A stretch of 64,000 nucleotides of DNA from Planctomycetaceae bacterium (GTDB lineage: Bacteria > Planctomycetota > Planctomycetia > Pirellulales > Pirellulaceae): the NCBI GenBank assembly GCA_947463915.1, contig CANHVO010000004.1:2022-66021 (forward strand). Direction: 5' to 3'. Shown here one piece after another: positions 24,101 through 46,934 of this stretch. Position 1 is the first letter of the stretch, and each line of letters starts with the position of its first letter. The position numbers and the translations under genes were made by a program. The notes beneath the pieces were generated by a model, which made no database searches, had not been told where the DNA came from, and saw only the letters and a program-made list of their open reading frames with translations.

Positions 24101-24583
24101 CTATTGGTCGATTGGCTCGTTGTTGTTGTTTCCGACCGTACCAGCGGCAACCAGGTAGGCTTTGTTCTCATGGTCAAGTGTCATGGATGACAACATGTCA
24201 GTGTTTGCCAGAAACATGGGCTTCAACCATGAGTTGTCGGAATACTTGCATCGAATCTCTACCGTGACAGTCGAGGTGGACGTAGTAAAAGTAGTCGGAG
24301 TCACGGTGATGGTCGCATTGCGAACTCCTGTCGCATTCAAGATCTGATTCGCTTTGGCTGTTACTTCGGCCACGGTCTTGCCTGGAACGATCCCTACTCG
24401 GGCTGACTCATAGGCCGCTTGCTCGACGGAGTGACGCGCGTACATGAAGCGAGCGAACTCGAAGCCAGCCAGAAGAATCGTAAAAAACACTCCGCTGCAA
24501 ATGGCGAAATCAATAGTGAATGCTCCCAAACGGCGTACGCATTTCGGCGAAACTCTACGTCCTGTGGTTTCTCTTGAATTCAT
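24101..24583 (-). CDS. TadE-like minor pilin
   Basis: RRLG|AFTIDF class III signal-like N-terminus (Asp at +5); AAYESARVG motif. Confidence 0.82.
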   Translation of the reverse strand: MNSRETTGRRVSPKCVRRLGAFTIDFAICSGVFFTILLAGFEFARFMYARHSVEQAAYESARVGIVPGKTVAEVTAKANQILNATGVRNATITVTPTTFTTSTSTVTVEIRCKYSDNSWLKPMFLANTDMLSSMTLDHENKAYLVAAGTVGNNNNEPIDQ

Positions 24584-24586
24584 GAT

Positions 24587-25789
24587 TTACTCGGTCAACA
24601 TGTTGGGTAGCGTGGCAGCGATAGTACGAAAGGCCGCTTCCAAGGATGCAGCATCGGGGGCGACATAGCATTGGCCACCGCCAGCTTGTGCGACGCGTTG
24701 CATCAATGCGACATCCGCTTGCGCACTAAATGCGATGGTATGGGTTCGAATATTCATTTCACGGGCCGTTGTGGCCAACACAACTGGATCGTCGCCTTGG
24801 GATAGAATTCCGTCTGTGAGCAAAATAATGCTCTTGCAGGAAGTGATCCGAGTTCGAGTCGGATCCGTCAAAGCGTTTACTCCCTCGCGAAGACCGGCTG
24901 CGATGTTGGTGTTTCCGATGAGAGGTTGCGTTGCAAGCGTGTTCAGCTTTTGTTTGAGCGTGGTGTAGTCGGTTGTCAGTGGTTGATCGATGGAGGCAAC
25001 AACGGATGTCCAAATCCCAAAGGTAAAGTTGCTCGAATAGGAGGCCAAGGCAACTCGGGACTTGATGGGAGCCTCGTTGAGAACGTTGGCAAAGATATTG
25101 ACCGATGAAGTCAGCGCAGCCCAGCGACTCGATGTAGCGTGGGGCAACTGAAAATAGTTTTGAATGGGAGACTTGCCTGCCAAATCACCTGGATAAGAAA
25201 AAGGCGTCGAGCCTAGTGTCCAAGCCATTGAGCCAGAGCGATCGACCACCAAGCATACGTCCATGTCGATTCGAGTTGAAACGGCGGACTGTTCGGAAGT
25301 GAAGGTCGAGACACCCATCAACTGCGGAATCAAGATGGTTGGGATCCCGCCACCAGCCATTTTGCTCAAGTTCGAATTGATACGAACGGAATTCGTAACG
25401 ACACTCGAAGCCGACGCCGTCTGAGAAAACGAATAGGAACCATTTGCGTTCCCGATCGAAGCCCCGATCTGAATGTCGCTGTCGTCCAAGACAACAACTC
25501 GACCGGCGACGCGATGCAAAGCCGCAATCGACTTAGCCGCTTGCCTGGCCTGATCCTGCGATTGTGTTTGGCCAAGTACGACGAGTGCTGCCTTGGCGGC
25601 TGCATCGGTCGCAAGCCTTTGTTCCGAACGCACGAGCTCCATGTACGCAATATTGATACTGAGCCCAGCCAACGCAACCAAAGCGAAAAAGGCCGCTCCT
25701 GAAAGGACCAGAATGGAGCCTCGGCGCTTCCGAGACCTTCTTGTGCGTTGGGATCGGTGAAGCGTAGGACAGGGAATCGGTTTGTTCAT
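24587..25789 (-). CDS. TadG-like pseudopilin with vWA domain
   Basis: RRG|SILVL, AATDAAAKAA-like motif (RLATDAAAKAA), MIDAS DRSGSM, TNIAAG, LLTDG. Confidence 0.88.
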   Translation of the reverse strand: MNKPIPCPTLHRSQRTRRSRKRRGSILVLSGAAFFALVALAGLSINIAYMELVRSEQRLATDAAAKAALVVLGQTQSQDQARQAAKSIAALHRVAGRVVVLDDSDIQIGASIGNANGSYSFSQTASASSVVTNSVRINSNLSKMAGGGIPTILIPQLMGVSTFTSEQSAVSTRIDMDVCLVVDRSGSMAWTLGSTPFSYPGDLAGKSPIQNYFQLPHATSSRWAALTSSVNIFANVLNEAPIKSRVALASYSSNFTFGIWTSVVASIDQPLTTDYTTLKQKLNTLATQPLIGNTNIAAGLREGVNALTDPTRTRITSCKSIILLTDGILSQGDDPVVLATTAREMNIRTHTIAFSAQADVALMQRVAQAGGGQCYVAPDAASLEAAFRTIAATLPNMLTE

Positions 25790-25800
25790 TTTGTAACCTT

Positions 25801-26223
25801 CTATTCACGAAGCATGTATGCGTCGACAGAAATGGTTCCTTGATCTTGCAGGACGAATCGTGTGGGAGAATTAGAAGCCCAGGGGACTTCAATTCGAACC
25901 CGAATCTGCGTTCCGGATGGTTGAGACAGCAAGTCCGCAGGCGTTACCGTGACGACGGCTCCCTTGACATTGCGTTGAGTCAACATCGCTTGGCAGCGTG
26001 TCGTAACATCCATACTGCTGCAGGTACTTCGTACCGCTGATCTTGCTCCTTCGTAGGCAACGAGGACCGCAGATTGACGGAGGAATATCCTTTGACAGAC
26101 TTCAATCGTTCCCAAAATGAGGATCAGCATCACTGGCAATACAAATGCCAACTCAATCGAAGCCAAACCGTCACGTCGGTTCGATTGTCTGTTACTCTTT
26201 TGATTTTTTGGTGAAGCGGTCAT
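25801..26223 (-). CDS. TadE-like minor pilin
   Basis: RRDG|LASIE (Glu at +5), LVAYEGAR motif. Confidence 0.88.
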   Translation of the reverse strand: MTASPKNQKSNRQSNRRDGLASIELAFVLPVMLILILGTIEVCQRIFLRQSAVLVAYEGARSAVRSTCSSMDVTTRCQAMLTQRNVKGAVVTVTPADLLSQPSGTQIRVRIEVPWASNSPTRFVLQDQGTISVDAYMLRE

Positions 26224-26264
26224 GGTTGGGGTTTTCTAAACGCAATTACGACTATCAACTTAAA

Positions 26265-27047
26265 TCACTGTGGCAGACTCGACGGGTCATCCGTCAGTGA
26301 GTTTGCATTCACCATACCGATATCCACCACGAACAGAGCATCGTTGTAGTCCAAGTCACCACCACCGACGATGTCTTCGAATCCGATCAATAGGTACGGT
26401 GAGTCGGGCATCGCAAACGCGACAACGTGTTGTAGCCGATCGCTGTTCTTCGACGAATCATTCCATAGCCAAGCAAGGTTTGTGTTGGTTTGCCCGGAAT
26501 CTCGCCACTTGTTGAATGCGTCCGATATAAGAAAGAAGTCCAACTGCCAGCCGTTACCACCCTTGCCCAGGTCCACAAAGTCGCCGGCGCGAAGAGGATC
26601 ATTCACTGTACGACTTCCACTTCCGATAGAGGCATTAGGGAAAATGACTTTGGGCGAGCCAGGCGTGGCACTACCCGCTGGTGTAAACGCAAATCCTAAT
26701 GTGTTCCGATAGCCTGCACCTTCGGCCAGGAAGTAAACGCGAATCGTCTCAACAGCTTCCTGACGCAAGAAGAGTTTGGCCGAGTCGAGCTTGAATCCCG
26801 TAGCGTTCGTGAAGACGACACTCTCTTGCAGGTTGTTGTTGATAATGGTTTGGAATTTTGGAAGCCACTGGCTATTGAAAGCCGCTGCTCGGGAGTCCGA
26901 ACCTGTTACTTCGACGTTGCCGATGACCGGTAAATTGAGCGGGACCGGTGTTGCCTGTGGGCTGGCTGGAGTACCTGCAAGGGCAATCCCGCTTGAAACC
27001 CAAAGCAAAAGCCCAAAGGCGGACAAGTTGTGTTTCGAAAGTCCCAT
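26265..27047 (-). CDS. Secreted DUF4114-domain protein
   Basis: VYFLAEGAGYRNTLGF and LIGFEDIVGGGDLDYNDALFVVD motifs; signal peptide from ATG 27047 with GAGGTG SD. The ORF track starts at 27179. Confidence 0.78.
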   Translation of the reverse strand: MGLSKHNLSAFGLLLWVSSGIALAGTPASPQATPVPLNLPVIGNVEVTGSDSRAAAFNSQWLPKFQTIINNNLQESVVFTNATGFKLDSAKLFLRQEAVETIRVYFLAEGAGYRNTLGFAFTPAGSATPGSPKVIFPNASIGSGSRTVNDPLRAGDFVDLGKGGNGWQLDFFLISDAFNKWRDSGQTNTNLAWLWNDSSKNSDRLQHVVAFAMPDSPYLLIGFEDIVGGGDLDYNDALFVVDIGMVNANSLTDDPSSLPQ

Positions 27048-27277
27048 CAATGCACCTCGTGAAGCAAGCTTAAAGTCGATAACATGAGAAGCCCCATGCC
27101 AGTTCCTTTCTGAACGGTAGCTTTGTTTCTTTCCGAAAAGTGCGACAGCTTCGAACCTTTTCGCGAATCCCATGCACAAAAGGTGAGGAAGGTAATGATT
27201 AATCTGTGGTTACCCGCTGCGAATATCTTTCGCAAACCGCAAAATCGTTAAGCTTCGATTCAAGTAATTCAAGTAAA

Positions 27278-27330
27278 GGTCACGCTCGGCAAGAGTGACC
27301 CAACGCATCGCACTCCTGCCGAGTGTGCCC
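27278..27330. repeat. Family E REP doublet
   Basis: ggtcacgctcggcaagagtgacc ... gcactcctgccgagtgtgcc. Confidence 0.7.
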
Positions 27331-27581
27331 TTGAAGTGCAAATACCAAGGTTGGGTTCTGAATTAATTCACATCAAAAGTTCTGCTCGTCACAGGAAGCA
27401 AGCCCTGCGGGAGGTACGCAATCACCGACCTCAAAATCGTCACAACCGTTTCTTTTTGTGTTAACGGGAGCATATATCCCAAAGCCAGCCCTATCTTCAA
27501 TGACAGGTGCAAAACGGCGCACTAACTTTTTAAGGCCATTTTACTTTTGATACATCATTGATTCTGAGTTTTGAGCTGGGA

Positions 27582-29414
27582 ATGACTGTCCGACAATTAA
27601 AGCCAACCGACATCAGCTTCACCAAAGTGGCTGATTGTTTCGTTGCCGAGTTGCGGAATGGCAATTCCCCCTCCATTGAGTCCTTTGCTACAGCCTTCCC
27701 ACACTTAAAAAACGACATTCGGGCAAATTTTCCCGCGTTGCTCATGCTCGAAAAAAATGTCTCGAAGAAAGGCGACCGTCCGGATACGCTCGTCGAGAAA
27801 GTCCTAGGCAATTGCCTTGTCCAAGAAGAGATTGGACGAGGTGCCATGGGGATCGTCTATCGAGGATACCAACAGGAATTGGATCGCGTGGTAGCGATCA
27901 AGACAATTCCTTTGGATGAAATGGCAAGCTTCGGTGTGGTTCAGCGTTTCGAACTTGAGCGACGCGCTATGGCGAAATTGGATCACACCAATATCGTTCC
28001 TGTCTACGAGTATGGTTACAACGAAGATCACGCGTATCTCGTGATGAAGTACATCGACGGTCATAGTCTGGACAAAATCTTATGCCCAGAAGCACAATAC
28101 CGTCTCAAAGTACTACTGGCTGAACTGCAAACCGACTGGAAGTCCTTTGCCGAATTAGGGATGCAAGTCGCATCGGGCTTGCAACATGCTCACGAACAAG
28201 GCTTGGTTCACCGAGATATCAAGCCTGCCAATCTTTTGTTCGACAACGCTCGAAAAATATGGATTACTGACTTCGGTCTTGCAAAAGCGTTTGATCACAA
28301 TCGTTCTCTGAGTCGCACAGGTGACGCGATCGGCACGCCTCGGTACATGGCCCCTGAGCAGCTTCGCGGGCATTGCGATTGCAGAAGCGACGTTTACTCA
28401 CTGGGGATCACGCTTTATGAGCTCGCAACGGGTAGTCGAGCTTGGCGGGACAGTTCGCTGGAAGCGCTAACAATACACCGAGAAAAGCTCAAGCTGAATA
28501 GCATCCTCGACGAAAACCCGGACATACCAGATGGGCTCGCCAAGATCATTATGAAGGCATGCGCGTTTGCGCCCGAGGACCGTTACCAGACAGCGAAGGA
28601 ACTGCAGTATGTCCTCGAGCGATTCGCTTCAGGAATCGCGCCAAGTGACCGAAGACGAAAACGACGTGAACCCGATGATATCTACCGCAGGCGTAGCAAA
28701 CGGACGGCTACAATGCTTGTCGCGTCTGCCATCGGGATTCTCATGTTTAGCGTGGTTTTTTCAATCGCTTTCAGGCGCCAGTCTGGCGATTCTCAAGCAC
28801 AAGCACAGACGCCCAAGATCCTCCCTAGCGGCGAGAATTTCATTGAAGCTCTTGGAGATCCGAAATCTGGAGACCTTGGACTCGCCTTGACCAAACTGGT
28901 CAAGGATTCCATTGAAAATTCGAGCAGTCAGTTTCGTCTTGAGGACGGTGACAAAAACCAGATTCTAAACAGCACCGAGGAACTGCTGTCGCGCATCAAG
29001 AATCGAGACCTCAGCGGAAAATCCTTCAATTCCTTTTTGGAAGGATACCGGGAATCTTCGCTGCCAGCCGGCACCCAGATTATGAGCTTGGTTCGATTCG
29101 TCGAACGTTCTAAATTCAAGCCTCGTGAAGTTGAAATGGCTTACGATACGCTTCGTGGATTCGCAAAGCTGGTTGTGAATAGAGAGATACCGGAGCAAGA
29201 AGCGTACTCCATGATAGCCATCCTAACTGGCGGCAAAGTGCTCTCGGCGGCTGAGTTGGCTCAATACAACGTTTCCGACGAAAAGCTATTTCAATGGCTC
29301 ATGATGGTTCGAAACCGAATCTCTCGTGCTCCGGCACAGGCTCTACAAGGAAAAATGAACATCGCAACAGAGATCGAACGCGCGCTGCGAAACCCACCCA
29401 AAGGCGATCGATAA
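27582..29414 (+). CDS. Membrane Ser/Thr protein kinase, co-transcribed with an ECF sigma factor
   Basis: IGRGAMGIVY, VAIK, HRDIKPAN, DFG, GTPRYMAPE; TM MLVASAIGILMFSVVFSIAF. Alternative TTG start at 27558. Confidence 0.93.
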   Translation: MTVRQLKPTDISFTKVADCFVAELRNGNSPSIESFATAFPHLKNDIRANFPALLMLEKNVSKKGDRPDTLVEKVLGNCLVQEEIGRGAMGIVYRGYQQELDRVVAIKTIPLDEMASFGVVQRFELERRAMAKLDHTNIVPVYEYGYNEDHAYLVMKYIDGHSLDKILCPEAQYRLKVLLAELQTDWKSFAELGMQVASGLQHAHEQGLVHRDIKPANLLFDNARKIWITDFGLAKAFDHNRSLSRTGDAIGTPRYMAPEQLRGHCDCRSDVYSLGITLYELATGSRAWRDSSLEALTIHREKLKLNSILDENPDIPDGLAKIIMKACAFAPEDRYQTAKELQYVLERFASGIAPSDRRRKRREPDDIYRRRSKRTATMLVASAIGILMFSVVFSIAFRRQSGDSQAQAQTPKILPSGENFIEALGDPKSGDLGLALTKLVKDSIENSSSQFRLEDGDKNQILNSTEELLSRIKNRDLSGKSFNSFLEGYRESSLPAGTQIMSLVRFVERSKFKPREVEMAYDTLRGFAKLVVNREIPEQEAYSMIAILTGGKVLSAAELAQYNVSDEKLFQWLMMVRNRISRAPAQALQGKMNIATEIERALRNPPKGDR

Positions 29415-29433
29415 TCCCTTCGAAGGCACTACT

Positions 29434-30051
29434 ATGAATACACTGCAAACAGACTCGAGTTCAGCACGTTTGCTAGATTTACTCAAGCAAGGTGGCGGCC
29501 GAGAATTAACAGCTCTGTTCATGCGTTCGCGCAGCCACATCCGAAGACTGGTTGAGTCTCGCCTCGACAAACGTCTGCTGGCACGAGTCGACGCGTCGGA
29601 TATCGTTCAAGAAACGTTTCTTCGTGCGACAGCAAGTATGGACGCTTATCTGAAGTCACCAAAAGTTCCCCCAATTGTCTGGCTTCGCCTAATCGGAAAG
29701 CACATCGTGGCCGAGACGCACCGGCGCCATTTTCGCGAAAAGCGTAGCCCTGAGCGTGAGAACAATTGGTATCAAGACGGAGACGATGTACTCAGCCAAA
29801 AGCTGATCGACTCCATGCACTCTGTCGGCACTTGGATGGCTCGACGGGAGCTGGCGTTAAAGGTGCAAGACGCGATCAAGAATTTATCCGACCAAGATCG
29901 TGAAATCATCGAGATGAGACACTTAGAGGAACTCTCGATCAAGGAATCGGCAATGGTCCTAGAATTAAATATCGAGACAACCAAGAAGCGATACTATCGC
30001 GCTCTCACCCGTTTTCGAGAGCTGGTCGCGGACATCCTACCGAACGAGTAA
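29434..30051 (+). CDS. ECF sigma-70 factor, planctomycete TIGR02984-like
   Basis: RLDKRLLARVDASDIVQETF in region 2; LSDQDREIIEMRHLEELS in region 4. Confidence 0.9.
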   Translation: MNTLQTDSSSARLLDLLKQGGGRELTALFMRSRSHIRRLVESRLDKRLLARVDASDIVQETFLRATASMDAYLKSPKVPPIVWLRLIGKHIVAETHRRHFREKRSPERENNWYQDGDDVLSQKLIDSMHSVGTWMARRELALKVQDAIKNLSDQDREIIEMRHLEELSIKESAMVLELNIETTKKRYYRALTRFRELVADILPNE

Positions 30052-30057
30052 TTCCAA

Positions 30058-30411
30058 CTACTTTGTTTTCTTTCCAACGAGCTTGTCGATCATCGTGTCG
30101 AGCTCCACTCGCTCTATACCCATTTTGGCAGCAGCCAAAGCAAAAAGCCTCTTTTCTACTTCGCTTAATTTGCCGTCAGCGGCCATGATCCGGACCAAAT
30201 CGGAAAGCATAGCAATCTGCTCTTCTTTCTCGGTTGGCAATTTCAGTGAAGCTTCATCGCTCAACGCATAAGATACCGCGTTGCCCAAATCCGCTTCATC
30301 GAGCCCCATCTCGCCGCAGCGATCCACCAGCAATGCAATCTCTCCCTCGGATAAACTGCCGTCGGCAGAAGCCATAATCACAAGGTTTTTGAGGTGGTCC
30401 AAATGTTGCAT
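30058..30411 (-). CDS. TerB-like (tellurite resistance B fold) protein
   Basis: MASADGSLSEGE and MAADGKLSEVE repeats. Likely start ATG 30411. Confidence 0.8.
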   Translation of the reverse strand: MQHLDHLKNLVIMASADGSLSEGEIALLVDRCGEMGLDEADLGNAVSYALSDEASLKLPTEKEEQIAMLSDLVRIMAADGKLSEVEKRLFALAAAKMGIERVELDTMIDKLVGKKTK

Positions 30412-30479
30412 CGTGTAATCTTTCCTAGGTTGATGAGAATACTCATCATAGTCCAAACGAAACCAAACTGTTCTGGAGA

Positions 30480-31019
30480 CTACCTAAAACTTGCAACACT
30501 TTCCTGCGTCGTAGTTTCAACATCGATTGCGTTGGATTCGCTCAGACTGTGCAAAGTCCTTTTCGTGGGCAGCGGAACACGTCTAGTGACCAGCGTTACC
30601 AAAATTCCGTCCTGGACCTTTTCACCATTTTGATTGAAAAGCTGGCGGTACCAATGAACTTCCCCGTGCTTTCGCCCTCTCGGCTTCAAATCGATAACTT
30701 CCGTGACCGCACGAATTGAGTCGCCGATAAAGACGGGTTTGGTAAAGCTCCAACTGCGTATATCGACAAAAGCAGCGGTCAAAACGGCTGGTGCGTTGGA
30801 GCTTAATCCGGCAAGGATGGAAAGCCCCAGCAAGCCGTGAGCAACCGGTTTTCCAAACGGACCATTCGCCGCAAACTCAGGATCGGTATGAAGCGGATCG
30901 TGATCGCCCGTCAGGTCTGCGAAAGACTGTAGGTCCGACGCCACGATGGTACGCTCGGAACTAGTCCATTTATCGCCAATGTTGAGTTGCTCAAAAGCGA
31001 GCGGTTCGATAGTAACCAT
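30480..31019 (-). CDS. MaoC-like dehydratase
   Basis: FADLTGDHDPLHTD, VAHGLL, FTKPVFIGD. Likely start ATG 31019. Confidence 0.88.
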   Translation of the reverse strand: MVTIEPLAFEQLNIGDKWTSSERTIVASDLQSFADLTGDHDPLHTDPEFAANGPFGKPVAHGLLGLSILAGLSSNAPAVLTAAFVDIRSWSFTKPVFIGDSIRAVTEVIDLKPRGRKHGEVHWYRQLFNQNGEKVQDGILVTLVTRRVPLPTKRTLHSLSESNAIDVETTTQESVASFR

Positions 31020-42255: not shown

Positions 42256-44811
42256 CTACAGCGAAGACAAGTTCGCTTGGATTTGTTTTAGAACCCCGGA
42301 CTCGTTCGAATGTTCTGGCAAGAGCTTACATACACGTTGTTGGTATTCGCTCGCCTTTCGAAAGGCATCGGTGGCTGATCTTTTGTCACCGTTGCTTTTC
42401 ATCAATACGCCGAGATTGTTCCACATACCTGCTGCGCGCTGGGCAGCACCAGCGTCATTCAAATCGGAATCCGCTGCTGTTCCTGCGATGGAAATTGCCC
42501 TTCGAAACGCAGCGTCCGCGTCACTCTTTCGGGCTAGCGACGAACATGCCATGCCGAGATTATTCAGGCTGATCGAAAGCTCACGGCGCGGGGCAGACGA
42601 GGGTGACGCAAGAGCGCTCACTCGATCGAAGTGCTCAATCGCTTGCTTGTACCATTCAATCGCCTCACGAGTTCTTCCGTTTCGAAAGAGGGCAGAGGCA
42701 GAGTTATCGCAGGCCAAGGCCAATCGCAGAATTGCCTCCGGAGTTTCTTTTCTTTTGACCGCTTTTTGTCGCAAAGCCAAGCCCTGCGCTGCGGCCTTTT
42801 CGGCTGGTTCAGGTCGACCAGCCTCGCCAAGCAGAACAGAAAAATTGATCAGAGTATTCGCGAGGTAGTCGTCTGCGATTTCATCTTGCTCCCCAGAGTC
42901 CGACGACGCTTTGGTTTTTTCGTTACTTAAGCCTTCGAGGATGACGATTGCTTCGGCGCTTTCTTGGATCGCCTTCTCGATTTCTCCTCGACGAAATGCG
43001 ACCATCGCTTGAGTGTGGTGTGAGAGAGCTTTGGCTCGTGCGCGACGATCCGAATCAGGTATCGAGTCTGCGATGCCGTTGGCTTCGTTTAGCAATGCCT
43101 TGCTAAATTTTTGGTCCCCTTGGTTGCTTCGAAGAAGCACCCATTCATGAATCGCCAAATGCAGGGTCGAGGCGATCCCCGAGTTAGTATTATCCCTGTA
43201 GGCAACGCGTAATGCTGTGACTGCGTCGCGATAAGCCGCGTCCGCTTCATCGACGCTGCCGAGGGTCTGAGTGAGCCTCGCAATTTTCAGCGTGGTGTCT
43301 GCAACATCGATAGCAAGCCGAGGATCGTTGTTAGCAGACGCGATAAACAACTCGTAGTAACCTAGCGTTTCATCGAGCAGTTCGCGACGCAGTTTTTCCG
43401 TACCAGAAAGCTGGCTCAAGCGTTCGGCGAATCTCAGGCCAAGAGTGTCCACGGCATCGCGGGCCTGCCTGTAATGCAAATCCGAGGAGCGAAGGGCAAG
43501 TTCGGTCGATCGCTTTTCGTTCCCCATCTGAAAATTGAAAGCGCTAAGGACCATGATCGCAACCATTGAAACCAGCAATGCCACCGCGATTCGCCCCGAA
43601 TGGATGCTGGTCCAATTCTTAGCTCGTTCGCCGAAGCTAACCGTATTGGCCAAAATTGGCTGCCCAGTTGAAAACCGAAGCAGATCTTCTGCAACCAAGG
43701 CAGCGGACTGGTAGCGATCGGCTCGCTCAGGTCGCATGGCCCGTCGAATGATCGTTTCAAGGTCTCGAGGTAAATTGCGATTGTATGCCGCAGGTCTCAG
43801 CGGCTCTGAAGTTTGGATGCGACTGAGTATCTCGCCTCGCGCCATTCCGCTAAACGGTGAGTGCCCCGTAAAGAGTTCGTAAAGCGTGGCTCCCAGGCTA
43901 TAAATATCGGAACGGCAATCGATCCGCTCGCGTTTGCCGGAAGCTTGCTCGGGACTCATGTATTGGAATGTGCCAATAATGTCGCCAGAGTATGTCAGAT
44001 GGAGTCCGTCCTCAACATGCGCCAAACCAAAATCGGTTATCCAAACATGGTCCGAGGAATCGATTAGCAGATTGGACGGCTTGATGTCTCGATGAACAAT
44101 ACCCATCGTATGGGCCGCGTGCAACGCGTCGGCCACATTTGCCATCTCTTTAGCCAACGTTTGGTAAAACTCAGCTCCTGACGGAGGTGTCGCTACTGAA
44201 TCGGCGTCTCGATGAAAGGCTGCATCGATGCGTTGCGATAGCGAAGTGCCATCGATCAGCTTCATTGTGTAGTAGTGTCGGCCGTTGTCGCAACCTATGT
44301 GATAGACCGGAACAATGCTGGGGTGATTCAATGATTCTGCGGCTCGAGCCTCGCGGCGAAAGCGTTCGATGGAACTTTGGTTTCTCATTCCTTGAGTTTC
44401 TAGGAACTTGATCGCAACCTCGTTCCCCATGGGCTCTTGCGTGGCTGCATAGACAACGCCCATCGCTCCGCGCCCAAGCTGACGCCCTATCTGAAAGCCA
44501 TCCACGCTTTGCGATGGGCTCAAGCCTAACGATTCCGTTGTCCCTCCGATATTCGATTCGCCGGTTCCCTGCACGCGATTTAGCATTCGAATGCTCTCGA
44601 GGGAAGATCGAAGCGGGCCAGCAAGTTCTGGATACTCGGCAACAATCGATTCGACCGACGGACATCGCCCATTCTCGAGATCGACCAAATAGCGATCCAA
44701 GATTAAAACAACTCGGTCTTGCGTTTCCGAATCCAATCGATCTATCCAGTCCGTGCCCGAAGGCTCGCTAAATCTGTTCAGATTGAATCCTTGTTTGGGT
44801 GGATGACTCAC
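42256..44811 (-). CDS. Ser/Thr protein kinase with TM and TPR-like repeats
   Basis: LGRGAMGVVY, VAIK, HRDIKPSN, DFG, GTFQYMSPE; TM; helical repeats. GTG start overlaps the sigma stop codon (GTGA). Confidence 0.93.
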   Translation of the reverse strand: MSHPPKQGFNLNRFSEPSGTDWIDRLDSETQDRVVLILDRYLVDLENGRCPSVESIVAEYPELAGPLRSSLESIRMLNRVQGTGESNIGGTTESLGLSPSQSVDGFQIGRQLGRGAMGVVYAATQEPMGNEVAIKFLETQGMRNQSSIERFRREARAAESLNHPSIVPVYHIGCDNGRHYYTMKLIDGTSLSQRIDAAFHRDADSVATPPSGAEFYQTLAKEMANVADALHAAHTMGIVHRDIKPSNLLIDSSDHVWITDFGLAHVEDGLHLTYSGDIIGTFQYMSPEQASGKRERIDCRSDIYSLGATLYELFTGHSPFSGMARGEILSRIQTSEPLRPAAYNRNLPRDLETIIRRAMRPERADRYQSAALVAEDLLRFSTGQPILANTVSFGERAKNWTSIHSGRIAVALLVSMVAIMVLSAFNFQMGNEKRSTELALRSSDLHYRQARDAVDTLGLRFAERLSQLSGTEKLRRELLDETLGYYELFIASANNDPRLAIDVADTTLKIARLTQTLGSVDEADAAYRDAVTALRVAYRDNTNSGIASTLHLAIHEWVLLRSNQGDQKFSKALLNEANGIADSIPDSDRRARAKALSHHTQAMVAFRRGEIEKAIQESAEAIVILEGLSNEKTKASSDSGEQDEIADDYLANTLINFSVLLGEAGRPEPAEKAAAQGLALRQKAVKRKETPEAILRLALACDNSASALFRNGRTREAIEWYKQAIEHFDRVSALASPSSAPRRELSISLNNLGMACSSLARKSDADAAFRRAISIAGTAADSDLNDAGAAQRAAGMWNNLGVLMKSNGDKRSATDAFRKASEYQQRVCKLLPEHSNESGVLKQIQANLSSL

Positions 44812-45767: not shown

Positions 45768-46694
45768 CTACCGACGCGCTCGAATGGCGGCCGTTAAAGG
45801 TGTTTTCGATTTACCATGTTCGCGACCTTCATCATGATCTCTTCCGTTCCCAACACCAAGTCTCTGAACCGTGTTACCGCCGACAATCGCATCGGCCCCA
45901 ACGGTCACTTGATCCGTCGATGTTTTGGACCTCACTCGCAAATCCCCAGCAATTTCGCCCGAATGAGTTAGCGTGTTATCGCCTGCCCCCAAAGAAGCCA
46001 AAACGCTACGTCCAACAAAACCAGTTGTTTCGACGGTTACTATGTCATTGCCGTCGCCTGCTTTCAATACGAGGCTCTGTTCGATGGCCCCGGCAACACT
46101 CACTGTGTTATCGCCTTTGCCCAGACTCAAGCCCGCGGATTTGCCGATCGTCGCTTCAGCAAGAATGGTAATCGTGTCTTTATCGCCCCCCCCAGAAACG
46201 AGAAGACTTCCCGCTATGCCGGCTCCGGTTTTCAATGAATTCGAGCCGTCGCCAAGCATCGCGTAGACATTTCGCCCCACCGTCGTCCCCGCTGCAAGCT
46301 CTAGATCGTCGCGGCCACTTCCTCCCTTGTAGCTCATGCTACCCTTGATGCTACCAGTCGCAAGCACCAACGAGTTGTCGCCACCACCTAGATTGGCCAT
46401 CACGCGATCTACGCTTGCCCCATCCAACTTGAGCGTAACGACATCGTTCGCCGTACCAGAAGTGTCGAGATTGATGTTGATGGACTTTACGCCATCAAAC
46501 GTACCGATTGAAATTCCATTATCCGTGACTTCGATTTGCGAACTGCTCTTGGCAACAATCTCAACGGGGCCATCCGAGTCGCCAGTGACTTTGAGGAGAC
46601 CATTTTCAACTACGGAGGCGACCGCGAGGAGTTTTCTGGACTCAAGTTGCTCGATGCTTTGAAAAAGTGGTGTTTTGCGGCGAAGTTTTGTCAT
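45768..46694 (-). CDS. Secreted beta-rich repeat protein with planctomycete extracellular leader
   Basis: SIEQLESRKLLA leader from ATG 46694; Gly/Asp-rich repeats (LGxGDNxL, GxGxDxV), like a beta-helix or beta-roll. Confidence 0.75.
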   Translation of the reverse strand: MTKLRRKTPLFQSIEQLESRKLLAVASVVENGLLKVTGDSDGPVEIVAKSSSQIEVTDNGISIGTFDGVKSININLDTSGTANDVVTLKLDGASVDRVMANLGGGDNSLVLATGSIKGSMSYKGGSGRDDLELAAGTTVGRNVYAMLGDGSNSLKTGAGIAGSLLVSGGGDKDTITILAEATIGKSAGLSLGKGDNTVSVAGAIEQSLVLKAGDGNDIVTVETTGFVGRSVLASLGAGDNTLTHSGEIAGDLRVRSKTSTDQVTVGADAIVGGNTVQRLGVGNGRDHDEGREHGKSKTPLTAAIRARR

Positions 46695-46934
46695 TTTCGA
46701 GTTCCTGCTAAGTCTTGTTTTTTGAGAACAGAAAGCATCCATGCCAGAGAAGCGTTCCATAGTTCAGAAGGACGAAAAGCCGGAAAAGTGTTTCGGCATC
46801 AGCAAAAGATTTCTGTATTCCTTTGTAATGCTTGCATCTGTTTCGAGAAGGAACTCGTATTCTCCATGGAAGACGCGAGTCGCGAGGTTCGGATGCAAAA
46901 TGTTGTTTCTGCGAGAAATGATTCTTTCCACACC

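Follow-up and report, generated by a model that had tools for sequence, protein, structure and literature searches.

A transmembrane Hanks-type kinase and an extracytoplasmic function sigma factor encoded as a conserved pair in a Pirellulaceae bacterium, with Ser55 of the sigma factor as a credible phosphosite

The kinase and sigma genes

We analyzed a 64,000-nt stretch of the genome of a Planctomycetaceae bacterium (GenBank assembly GCA_947463915.1, contig CANHVO010000004.1, positions 2,022 to 66,021, forward strand; hereafter the window), and focused on two adjacent genes in it, one for a membrane Ser/Thr kinase and, directly downstream, one for an extracytoplasmic function (ECF) sigma factor. 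The features of the locus are listed in Table 1. The open reading frame (ORF) of the kinase spans 27558-29414, opens at a TTG at 27558, and ends with TAA; the start was placed at the ATG at 27582, which agrees with the N-termini of all orthologs. The Pkinase domain was recognized by Pfam with an E-value of 4.6e-49 and 167.6 bits, and the motifs that define a Hanks-type kinase were present, i.e., GRGAMG (residues 85-90), VAIK (104-107), HRDIKPAN (210-217), DFG (230-232), and MAPE (256-259). The Pfam scan gave no match before residue 81. The domain found there is kept in all the orthologous kinases with the pattern DISFxxVADxFxxELRxGxxPSIxxFxxAFPHL...FPAL..LE, and is also recognizable in the kinase of a second kinase-ECF module (module 2; 44581-44697, minus strand); a role in sigma docking is conceivable. 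A basic juxtamembrane stretch, RRRKRREPDDIYRRRSKR, stands just before the single transmembrane helix, and by the positive-inside rule the kinase domain would be cytoplasmic. The outer domain was all helices in an AlphaFold2 (AF2) model of moderate confidence (predicted local distance difference test, pLDDT, of 68.6); it matched no Pfam family, and a fold search against the PDB found no match (best E-value 0.45). This domain is conserved in the orthologs and rare, with only 4 close homologs in a word-index search, and it is presumed to be the sensor.

The sigma factor matched PF04542, PF08281, and PF07638, as an ECF (sigma-70 group 4) protein does, and passed TIGR02937 with 53.7 bits (cut-off 42.9). 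Its best NCBIfam family was TIGR02984 (Sig-70_plancto1), with a score of 142.3 bits that stayed under the cut-off of 183.75. The AF2 model (pLDDT 89.5) contained two helical domains with a linker of low confidence between them. In the region 2.2 signature, the codons of Asp53, Ser55, and Asp56 lie at 29590-29592, 29596-29598 (TCG), and 29599-29601, respectively. HMMER alignments placed Ser55 at the third motif position, together with that of EAED in SigW and SADD in SigC; in the model, the region 2.2 helix begins at residue 54, with Asp53 as its N-cap and Ser55 at position N2, in the first turn.

When the 19-nt gap between both genes was scanned, it contained no promoter- or terminator-like site, and the kinase and the sigma factor are probably co-transcribed. 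Pfam and NCBIfam scans of the flanking genes, whose products are a protein with a TerB domain and a MaoC dehydratase, detected no anti-sigma domain. The TerB gene downstream was considered as an anti-sigma candidate and rejected; it is convergent, lacks such a domain, and is kept in close relatives only. An earlier sequence-only reading of this DNA had described a kinase gene followed after 19 nt by an ECF gene, a region 2.2 that reads RVDASDIVQE with Ser55 at the usual Glu position, and no anti-sigma gene nearby, and on all these points the sequence bore it out.

Table 1. Features of the kinase-sigma locus and its divergent neighbor, in window coordinates.
Feature	Position	Strand	Basis or remark
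Membrane Hanks-type Ser/Thr kinase gene, 610 aa	27582-29414	+	Pkinase match, intact catalytic motifs, orthologs upstream of orthologous sigma
Pre-kinase N-terminal domain, residues 10-57	27609-27752	+	Ortholog alignment
Catalytic domain, residues 81-339	27822-28598	+	Pfam, motif reading
Single transmembrane helix, residues 375-397	28704-28772	+	Direct sequence reading
Extracytoplasmic C-terminal domain of kinase, ~210 aa	28773-29411	+	Ortholog conservation, AF2
Intergenic gap between kinase and sigma, 19 nt	29415-29433	+	Sequence
ECF sigma gene, 205 aa, planctomycete kinase-linked clade	29434-30051	+	Sigma70_r2, r4_2, and Sigma70_ECF matches
Region 2.2 signature RVDASDIVQE, residues 51-60	29584-29613	+	Sequence, alignment, AF2
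Ser105 (KRSPE), end of sigma-2/start of linker, alternative candidate phosphosite	29746-29748	+	Ser/Thr in 46% of family, Asp in 38%
Ser/Thr-rich linker segment DSMHSVGT, residues 126-133	29809-29832	+	Ser130 is Ser/Thr in 87% of family
Upstream region of kinase-sigma unit	27383-27581	+	Homology with L006 from ~27380, blocks also in L064
Junction segment, window-specific	27253-27380	.	Sequence comparison; common to neither L001 nor L006
Upstream region of DUF4114/Tad cassette	27048-27252	-	Homologous to L001
DUF4114-TadE-TadG(VWA)-TadE cassette (context)	24101-27047	-	Pfam: DUF4114/TadE/VWA+Tad/TadE

Conservation of the pair and of Ser55

The kinase gene was found immediately upstream of, and on the same strand as, sigma orthologs with 91, 88, 84, 61, and 53-55% identity, and the same order was observed at three loci (L011-L013) where the sigma identity was 41-46%. 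Over this whole range, 41-91%, both the order and a spacing of 3-50 nt were conserved, and the intact orthologous kinases share the pre-kinase and catalytic domains, the basic stretch, the transmembrane helix, and the outer helical domain. The comparison supports the notion that kinase and sigma factor are a conserved functional unit. Within the 7.6-Mb genome that contains the window, this gene order was unusual, being found in 3 of 21 pairs, as most have the sigma gene first; it is typical of the RxDASDIxQE subfamily.

To analyze position 55, a set composed of the query and its 150 best relatives (31-62% identity) was collected by an index-free HMMER search over 1.8 billion representatives. 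A preceding word-index homolog search, in which Ser55 was present in 118/118 sequences, was discarded, since the motif is itself among the index words and thereby biases the result. Ser occupied the position in 122 of the 151 sequences (81%), Glu or Asp in 14 (9%), and Ala in 6, and the surrounding positions were Asp53 in 138, Asp56 in 148, and Gln59 in 150; the clade can be described by the signature R-[VIL]-D-x-S-D-[VI]-x-Q-[ED]. The DASD that had been taken for a deviation from DAED is, instead, the norm of the clade.

Next, stop-to-stop ORFs of the same genome were scanned with a hidden Markov model of the clade for sigma factors and with the kinase domain for kinases, which gave about 51 ECF-like and 78 Hanks kinase ORFs. 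Among the 43 ECFs that aligned at the third motif position, 21 had a same-strand kinase within 700 nt, indicating that kinase-sigma pairing exceeds chance. Such a kinase accompanied 8 of 9 sigma factors with Ser, the ninth having a divergent kinase 595 nt away, vs. 13 of 34 with another residue (Fisher p 0.009), and when grouped by charge, 17 of 24 with a non-acidic residue vs. 4 of 19 with an acidic one (p 0.002), although these counts are not phylogenetically independent. Unlinked ECFs carry Glu at the Ser55 position. In related genomes, an adjacent kinase was present at 12 of 13 loci with DxSD sigma factors. Since Ser55 is conserved, kinase-associated, and located where the region 2.2 helix makes its first turn, it is a credible phosphosite.

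We consider it probable that the two genes form an operon for one-step transmembrane signaling of a known kind, in which the kinase phosphorylates the sigma factor, most likely at Ser55, and that the neighboring Tad cassette described below is probably not a dedicated target. Through its helical outer domain, the single-pass receptor kinase would sense a signal, and it would then phosphorylate the sigma factor encoded beside it, a protein that lacks an anti-sigma partner. The likeliest target, Ser55, would lie on the surface that binds the beta-prime clamp helices of RNA polymerase, and the linker serines Ser105 and Ser127-Ser130 may be secondary targets. A phosphate at Ser55 would bring additional charge to the face that binds beta-prime and favor the helix dipole. 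As the sigma factor keeps Asp53 and Asp56, this phosphate would enlarge an acidic patch that is already there; the switch would be of a gain or tuning type, unlike that of EcfP, where lost charge is replaced. The gene structure, the intact catalytic motifs, the residue conservation, the joint inheritance of kinase and sigma factor, and the lack of such inheritance with Tad were observed, and the phosphorylation, its site, and its effect are predicted.

Several observations weigh against this interpretation, besides the shared ancestry behind the above counts. Close kinase-linked paralogs carry Ala (RIDPAD, KFSAAD) or Cys (KVDACD) in place of Ser55, so that kinase-linked function does not require Ser; Ser55, at the N-terminus of a helix, could be purely structural; and, with both Asp residues of DxxD present, the sigma factor may bind core without phosphorylation. 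At the locus with 91% sigma identity, L001, an intact sigma gene stands beside a kinase without its first 174 residues, and a search for RNA sequencing or metatranscriptome runs for the locus found none. Some of these points can be combined into another explanation, in which Ser55 is a structural first-turn residue and the kinase acts through the linker sites Ser105 and Ser127-Ser130, or on another substrate. It draws on the retained Asp53 and Asp56, on the Ala and Cys paralogs, and on the conservation of the linker candidates, as position 105 is Ser, Thr, Asp, or Glu in 85% of the family and Ser130 is also well kept (Table 1). The pattern at Ser105 may be analogous to T106 of EcfK, the linker phosphosite required for function in that protein, whose T51A variant is functional (PMC13147305). 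We regard this explanation as unlikely because Ser55 is conserved well above the neighboring surface positions, Glu and Asp are its main replacements, and Ser tracks kinase adjacency while the unlinked ECFs have Glu. Phosphorylation at Ser55 is kept as the preferred reading. The proposal that the sigma factor is switched on by its kinase is supported in part, as regards the conserved unit and a credible Ser55, but is overstated in view of the DxxD acids that were kept and the Ala and Cys paralogs.

Some related loci showed particularities of their own. At L001:6498-6728 (equivalent to 27253-28101 of the window), about 170 unrelated nt replace the pre-kinase domain and the N-lobe, with homology over residues 175-610; this is a contig of a metagenome-assembled genome (MAG) from NCBI, and the loss either is a true deletion or comes from a join made in assembly. 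On a 1.8-Mb MAG contig (L008:5010-6965), two ORFs of 448 and 98 aa take the place of a single orthologous kinase gene, with loss or frameshift of the outer domain. At the distant orthologs L007-L009, an amine-oxidase gene (PF01593) lies directly upstream of the pair, with aminotransferase and RND/OEP efflux genes near, and this may represent the ancestral neighborhood.

The divergent Tad cassette and the intergenic DNA

The four-gene cassette is divergent from the kinase-sigma pair, at a distance of 534 nt. This arrangement, already pointed out in the sequence-only reading, was confirmed; positions 25500-30500 are covered by single contigs in independent lake-water metagenomes, indicating that the juxtaposition is not a binning artefact. 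That reading had further proposed that the sigma factor drives the adjacent adhesin/pilin operon, and had named a lack of conserved linkage as grounds for refutation; the synteny comparison showed such a lack, and the promoter analysis gave no support either. Apart from the window, the cassette was found beside the pair only at L001. At L006 (88% sigma identity), TerB-MaoC-SASA are kept downstream, and ApbE/DUF2271 and PepSY_TM genes, but no cassette, lie upstream; five more distant ortholog contexts also lack it, their neighbors being aminotransferase, amine-oxidase, RND/OEP, or polysaccharide genes. Conversely, none of 36 genus-mates contained a sigma ortholog with more than 46% identity, 35 of them being without an ortholog, and ten keep the four-gene cassette without the pair (TadG identity 64-85%). 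No sigma factor or kinase of the clade was found upstream of DUF4114 in nine of these ten, as far as each contig reached, within about 0.7-6.5 kb of DNA in eight and almost none in the other; for the tenth, the comparison covered the search locus only. The six other places of the genome with TadG paralogs are on contigs without a kinase-linked sigma factor of the clade.

The intergenic DNA is composed of two halves with separate evolutionary histories, as judged from sequence comparison, split by a repeat similar to repetitive extragenic palindromic (REP) elements. The kinase-side half contains the conserved blocks CGTCACAACCGTTTC, GGGAGCnTAnATCCC, and GCAAAACGGCGCACTA. The REP-like palindrome, AAGGTCACGCTCGGCAAGAGTGACCC (core 27275-27302), occurs at least 60 times in the genome, and the two inverted copies in the junction segment fold to -40.7 kcal/mol. 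A similar element was observed upstream of the L009 kinase, and four of four metagenome assemblies have one extra A after 27274 compared with the window, in an intergenic homopolymer. On the Tad side, a -10-like box, AAGCTACCGTT (27104-27114, minus strand), with the consensus AAGCTAnnGTT (TAnnnT), precedes DUF4114 in every ortholog of the cassette within the genus (L054-L062), and it is also conserved in genus-mates without the sigma factor. A 20-nt stretch, AGAAAGGAACTGGCATGGGG, is identical in the window and L001. The upstream DNA of the kinase and that of the cassette shared only 7-mers at chance level. A two-block (-35/-10) discovery in six ortholog kinase upstream regions gave a best total of 10 mismatches vs. 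9-13 in shuffles, and scans for sigma-70 and terminator consensus sequences gave counts at or below the shuffle expectation.

The Tad-side upstream region also contains the element CACTTTTCGG...CTGGCATGG (27094-27142, minus strand). In the form CACTTTTC-N30-32-CTGGCATGG, it was present at two places only in the 7.6 Mb, the one just mentioned and 46739-46790 (minus strand), with a roughly estimated chance expectation of about 0.03 for two such copies. In both cases, 44-46 nt separate the element from the downstream ATG of a gene that encodes a secreted protein and adjoins a kinase-ECF module, i.e., DUF4114 here and the gene at 46694 next to module 2, and both copies contain GGAAC followed by ATG(T/C)T 15-16 nt on. 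The CTGGCATGG part is kept in L001 and not in genus-mates without the pair. The sigma factors of modules 1 (the pair under study) and 2 are only about 23% identical.

These data bear on the possibility that the kinase-activated sigma factor drives the DUF4114-TadE-TadG-TadE operon from the shared intergenic DNA. The divergent adjacency is genuine, in L001 as well, the two-part element occurs twice against a rough chance expectation of about 0.03, the 20-nt stretch is identical in both loci, and a secretin gene is located close to the pair in relatives with 84% sigma identity. In the latter (L064:3921-9964 and L066:3045-8132), TerB-MaoC are followed by this secretin gene and by a gene whose 1152-aa product combines two kinase domains with an HSP70-like domain, this fusion having an 87% ortholog elsewhere in the genome under study (C5:19116-22565). 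As a link to pili, the secretin was rejected as coincidental; the L064 protein has no close ortholog in this genome, where the best match is 41% identical. Such control of the cassette is, in our judgment, improbable, given the orthologous pairs without a cassette, the genus-mates that have cassette and -10-like box without the sigma ortholog, the separate origin of the intergenic halves, the upstream regions without a shared motif, and the TadG paralogs away from kinase-linked sigma factors. The Tad-like cassette appears to be a lineage-specific neighbor with its own promoter box, and probably not a dedicated target. Two points pull the other way: the juxtaposition is real in the lake population, and the recurrence of the two-part element only beside module 2 keeps alive a small probability of some local co-regulation at the cassette.

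Related systems and significance

The closest known relatives of this arrangement belong to group ECF43, namely EcfP/PknT of Vibrio parahaemolyticus and EcfK/PknS of Xanthomonas citri, where an ECF sigma factor with only sigma-2 and sigma-4 is likewise encoded together with a Hanks kinase that crosses the membrane once, and an anti-sigma factor is absent. Sigma factors of this type are intrinsically inactive before their cognate kinase has phosphorylated them. The core-binding motif is DxxDxxQE, and the Asp residues of DxxD are the core contacts (PMC13147305). In ECF43, the acidic residues have been lost, with a QTTA consensus that is STTA in EcfP, and the Thr at the third position is phosphorylated (PMC13147305, PMC8999054). 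Our sigma factor resembles these proteins in having a hydroxyl at the third DAED position, that of the phosphorylated T63 in EcfP and T51 in EcfK, and in its linker Ser/Thr candidates, which recall EcfK T106. It shares with ECF43 a conserved adjacent Hanks kinase without an anti-sigma gene, but its DASD is not the uncharged QTTA-type motif with Thr. It differs further in having Ser instead of Thr, in keeping both DxxD Asp residues, compared with STTA (EcfP) and QATE (EcfK), in the kinase preceding the sigma gene, in its planctomycete lineage, and in the unrelated outer domain of its kinase; for the system described here, phosphorylation is a prediction. The idea of an EcfP-type switch, where phosphorylation supplies a missing charge, consequently holds only in part: the hydroxyl is at the same position of a kinase-linked sigma factor, but Asp53 and Asp56 are kept, and the STTA of EcfP has neither acid.

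The groups ECF59-ECF62 and ECF217 and the family TIGR02984 are similar in their planctomycete origin, the conserved kinase neighbor, and the absence of an anti-sigma factor. The locus has the features that ECF59-62/217 have in common, i.e., a planctomycete ECF with an adjacent kinase and no anti-sigma gene, a resemblance judged from lineage and gene neighborhood. The named homologs of the sigma factor are from Pirellula, Pirellulaceae, Rubripirellula, and Stieleria. To our knowledge, no member of ECF59-62/217, nor any planctomycete kinase-ECF pair, has been experimentally characterized. A passage in PMC8103513, citing Iyer et al. 2020, assigns the role of proposed phospho-site to a Ser of the region 2.2 motif in ECF59 and the original ECF60, and kinase-linked groups beyond ECF43 keep a DAED-like acidic motif with Ser or Thr in or near it (PMC8999054). 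The sigma factor studied here agrees with this pattern. In Mycobacterium tuberculosis, the Hanks kinase PknB also phosphorylates an ECF sigma factor, SigH, directly and at linker residues (PMC13147305). This case differs in that SigH has the anti-sigma factor RshA and an unlinked kinase, and its phosphorylation is without known effect on core binding.

Two further explanations are weaker. It is quite improbable, as we see it, that in the lake lineage the orphan DUF4114-Tad tip cassette has recently come under kinase-ECF control, with the two-part element as the cis-site of a small local regulon and Ser55 as a graded switch on an intact DxxD; if this were true, receptor kinases would gate the expression of a surface adhesin or pilus tip. 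That kinase and sigma factor are mere neighbors with no direct regulatory relation, as the truncated kinase beside the L001 sigma gene might suggest, is scarcely credible in view of the order and spacing kept over 41-91% identity, a kinase that co-evolves over its full length, the lack of an anti-sigma gene, and the precedent of the kinase-sigma arrangement in ECF43 (PMC8999054).

The locus is a genuine, if ordinary, planctomycete kinase-linked ECF pair, in which gating by the kinase at Ser55, already proposed at the group level, is plausible, and a single locus adds little to such bioinformatics proposals. Few regulators of planctomycetes are as expanded and as little studied as kinase-linked ECFs, and this pair is a compact DxSD example with both core-binding Asp residues in place, which could serve to separate an on/off from a tuning role of the phospho-Ser, in contrast to ECF43.

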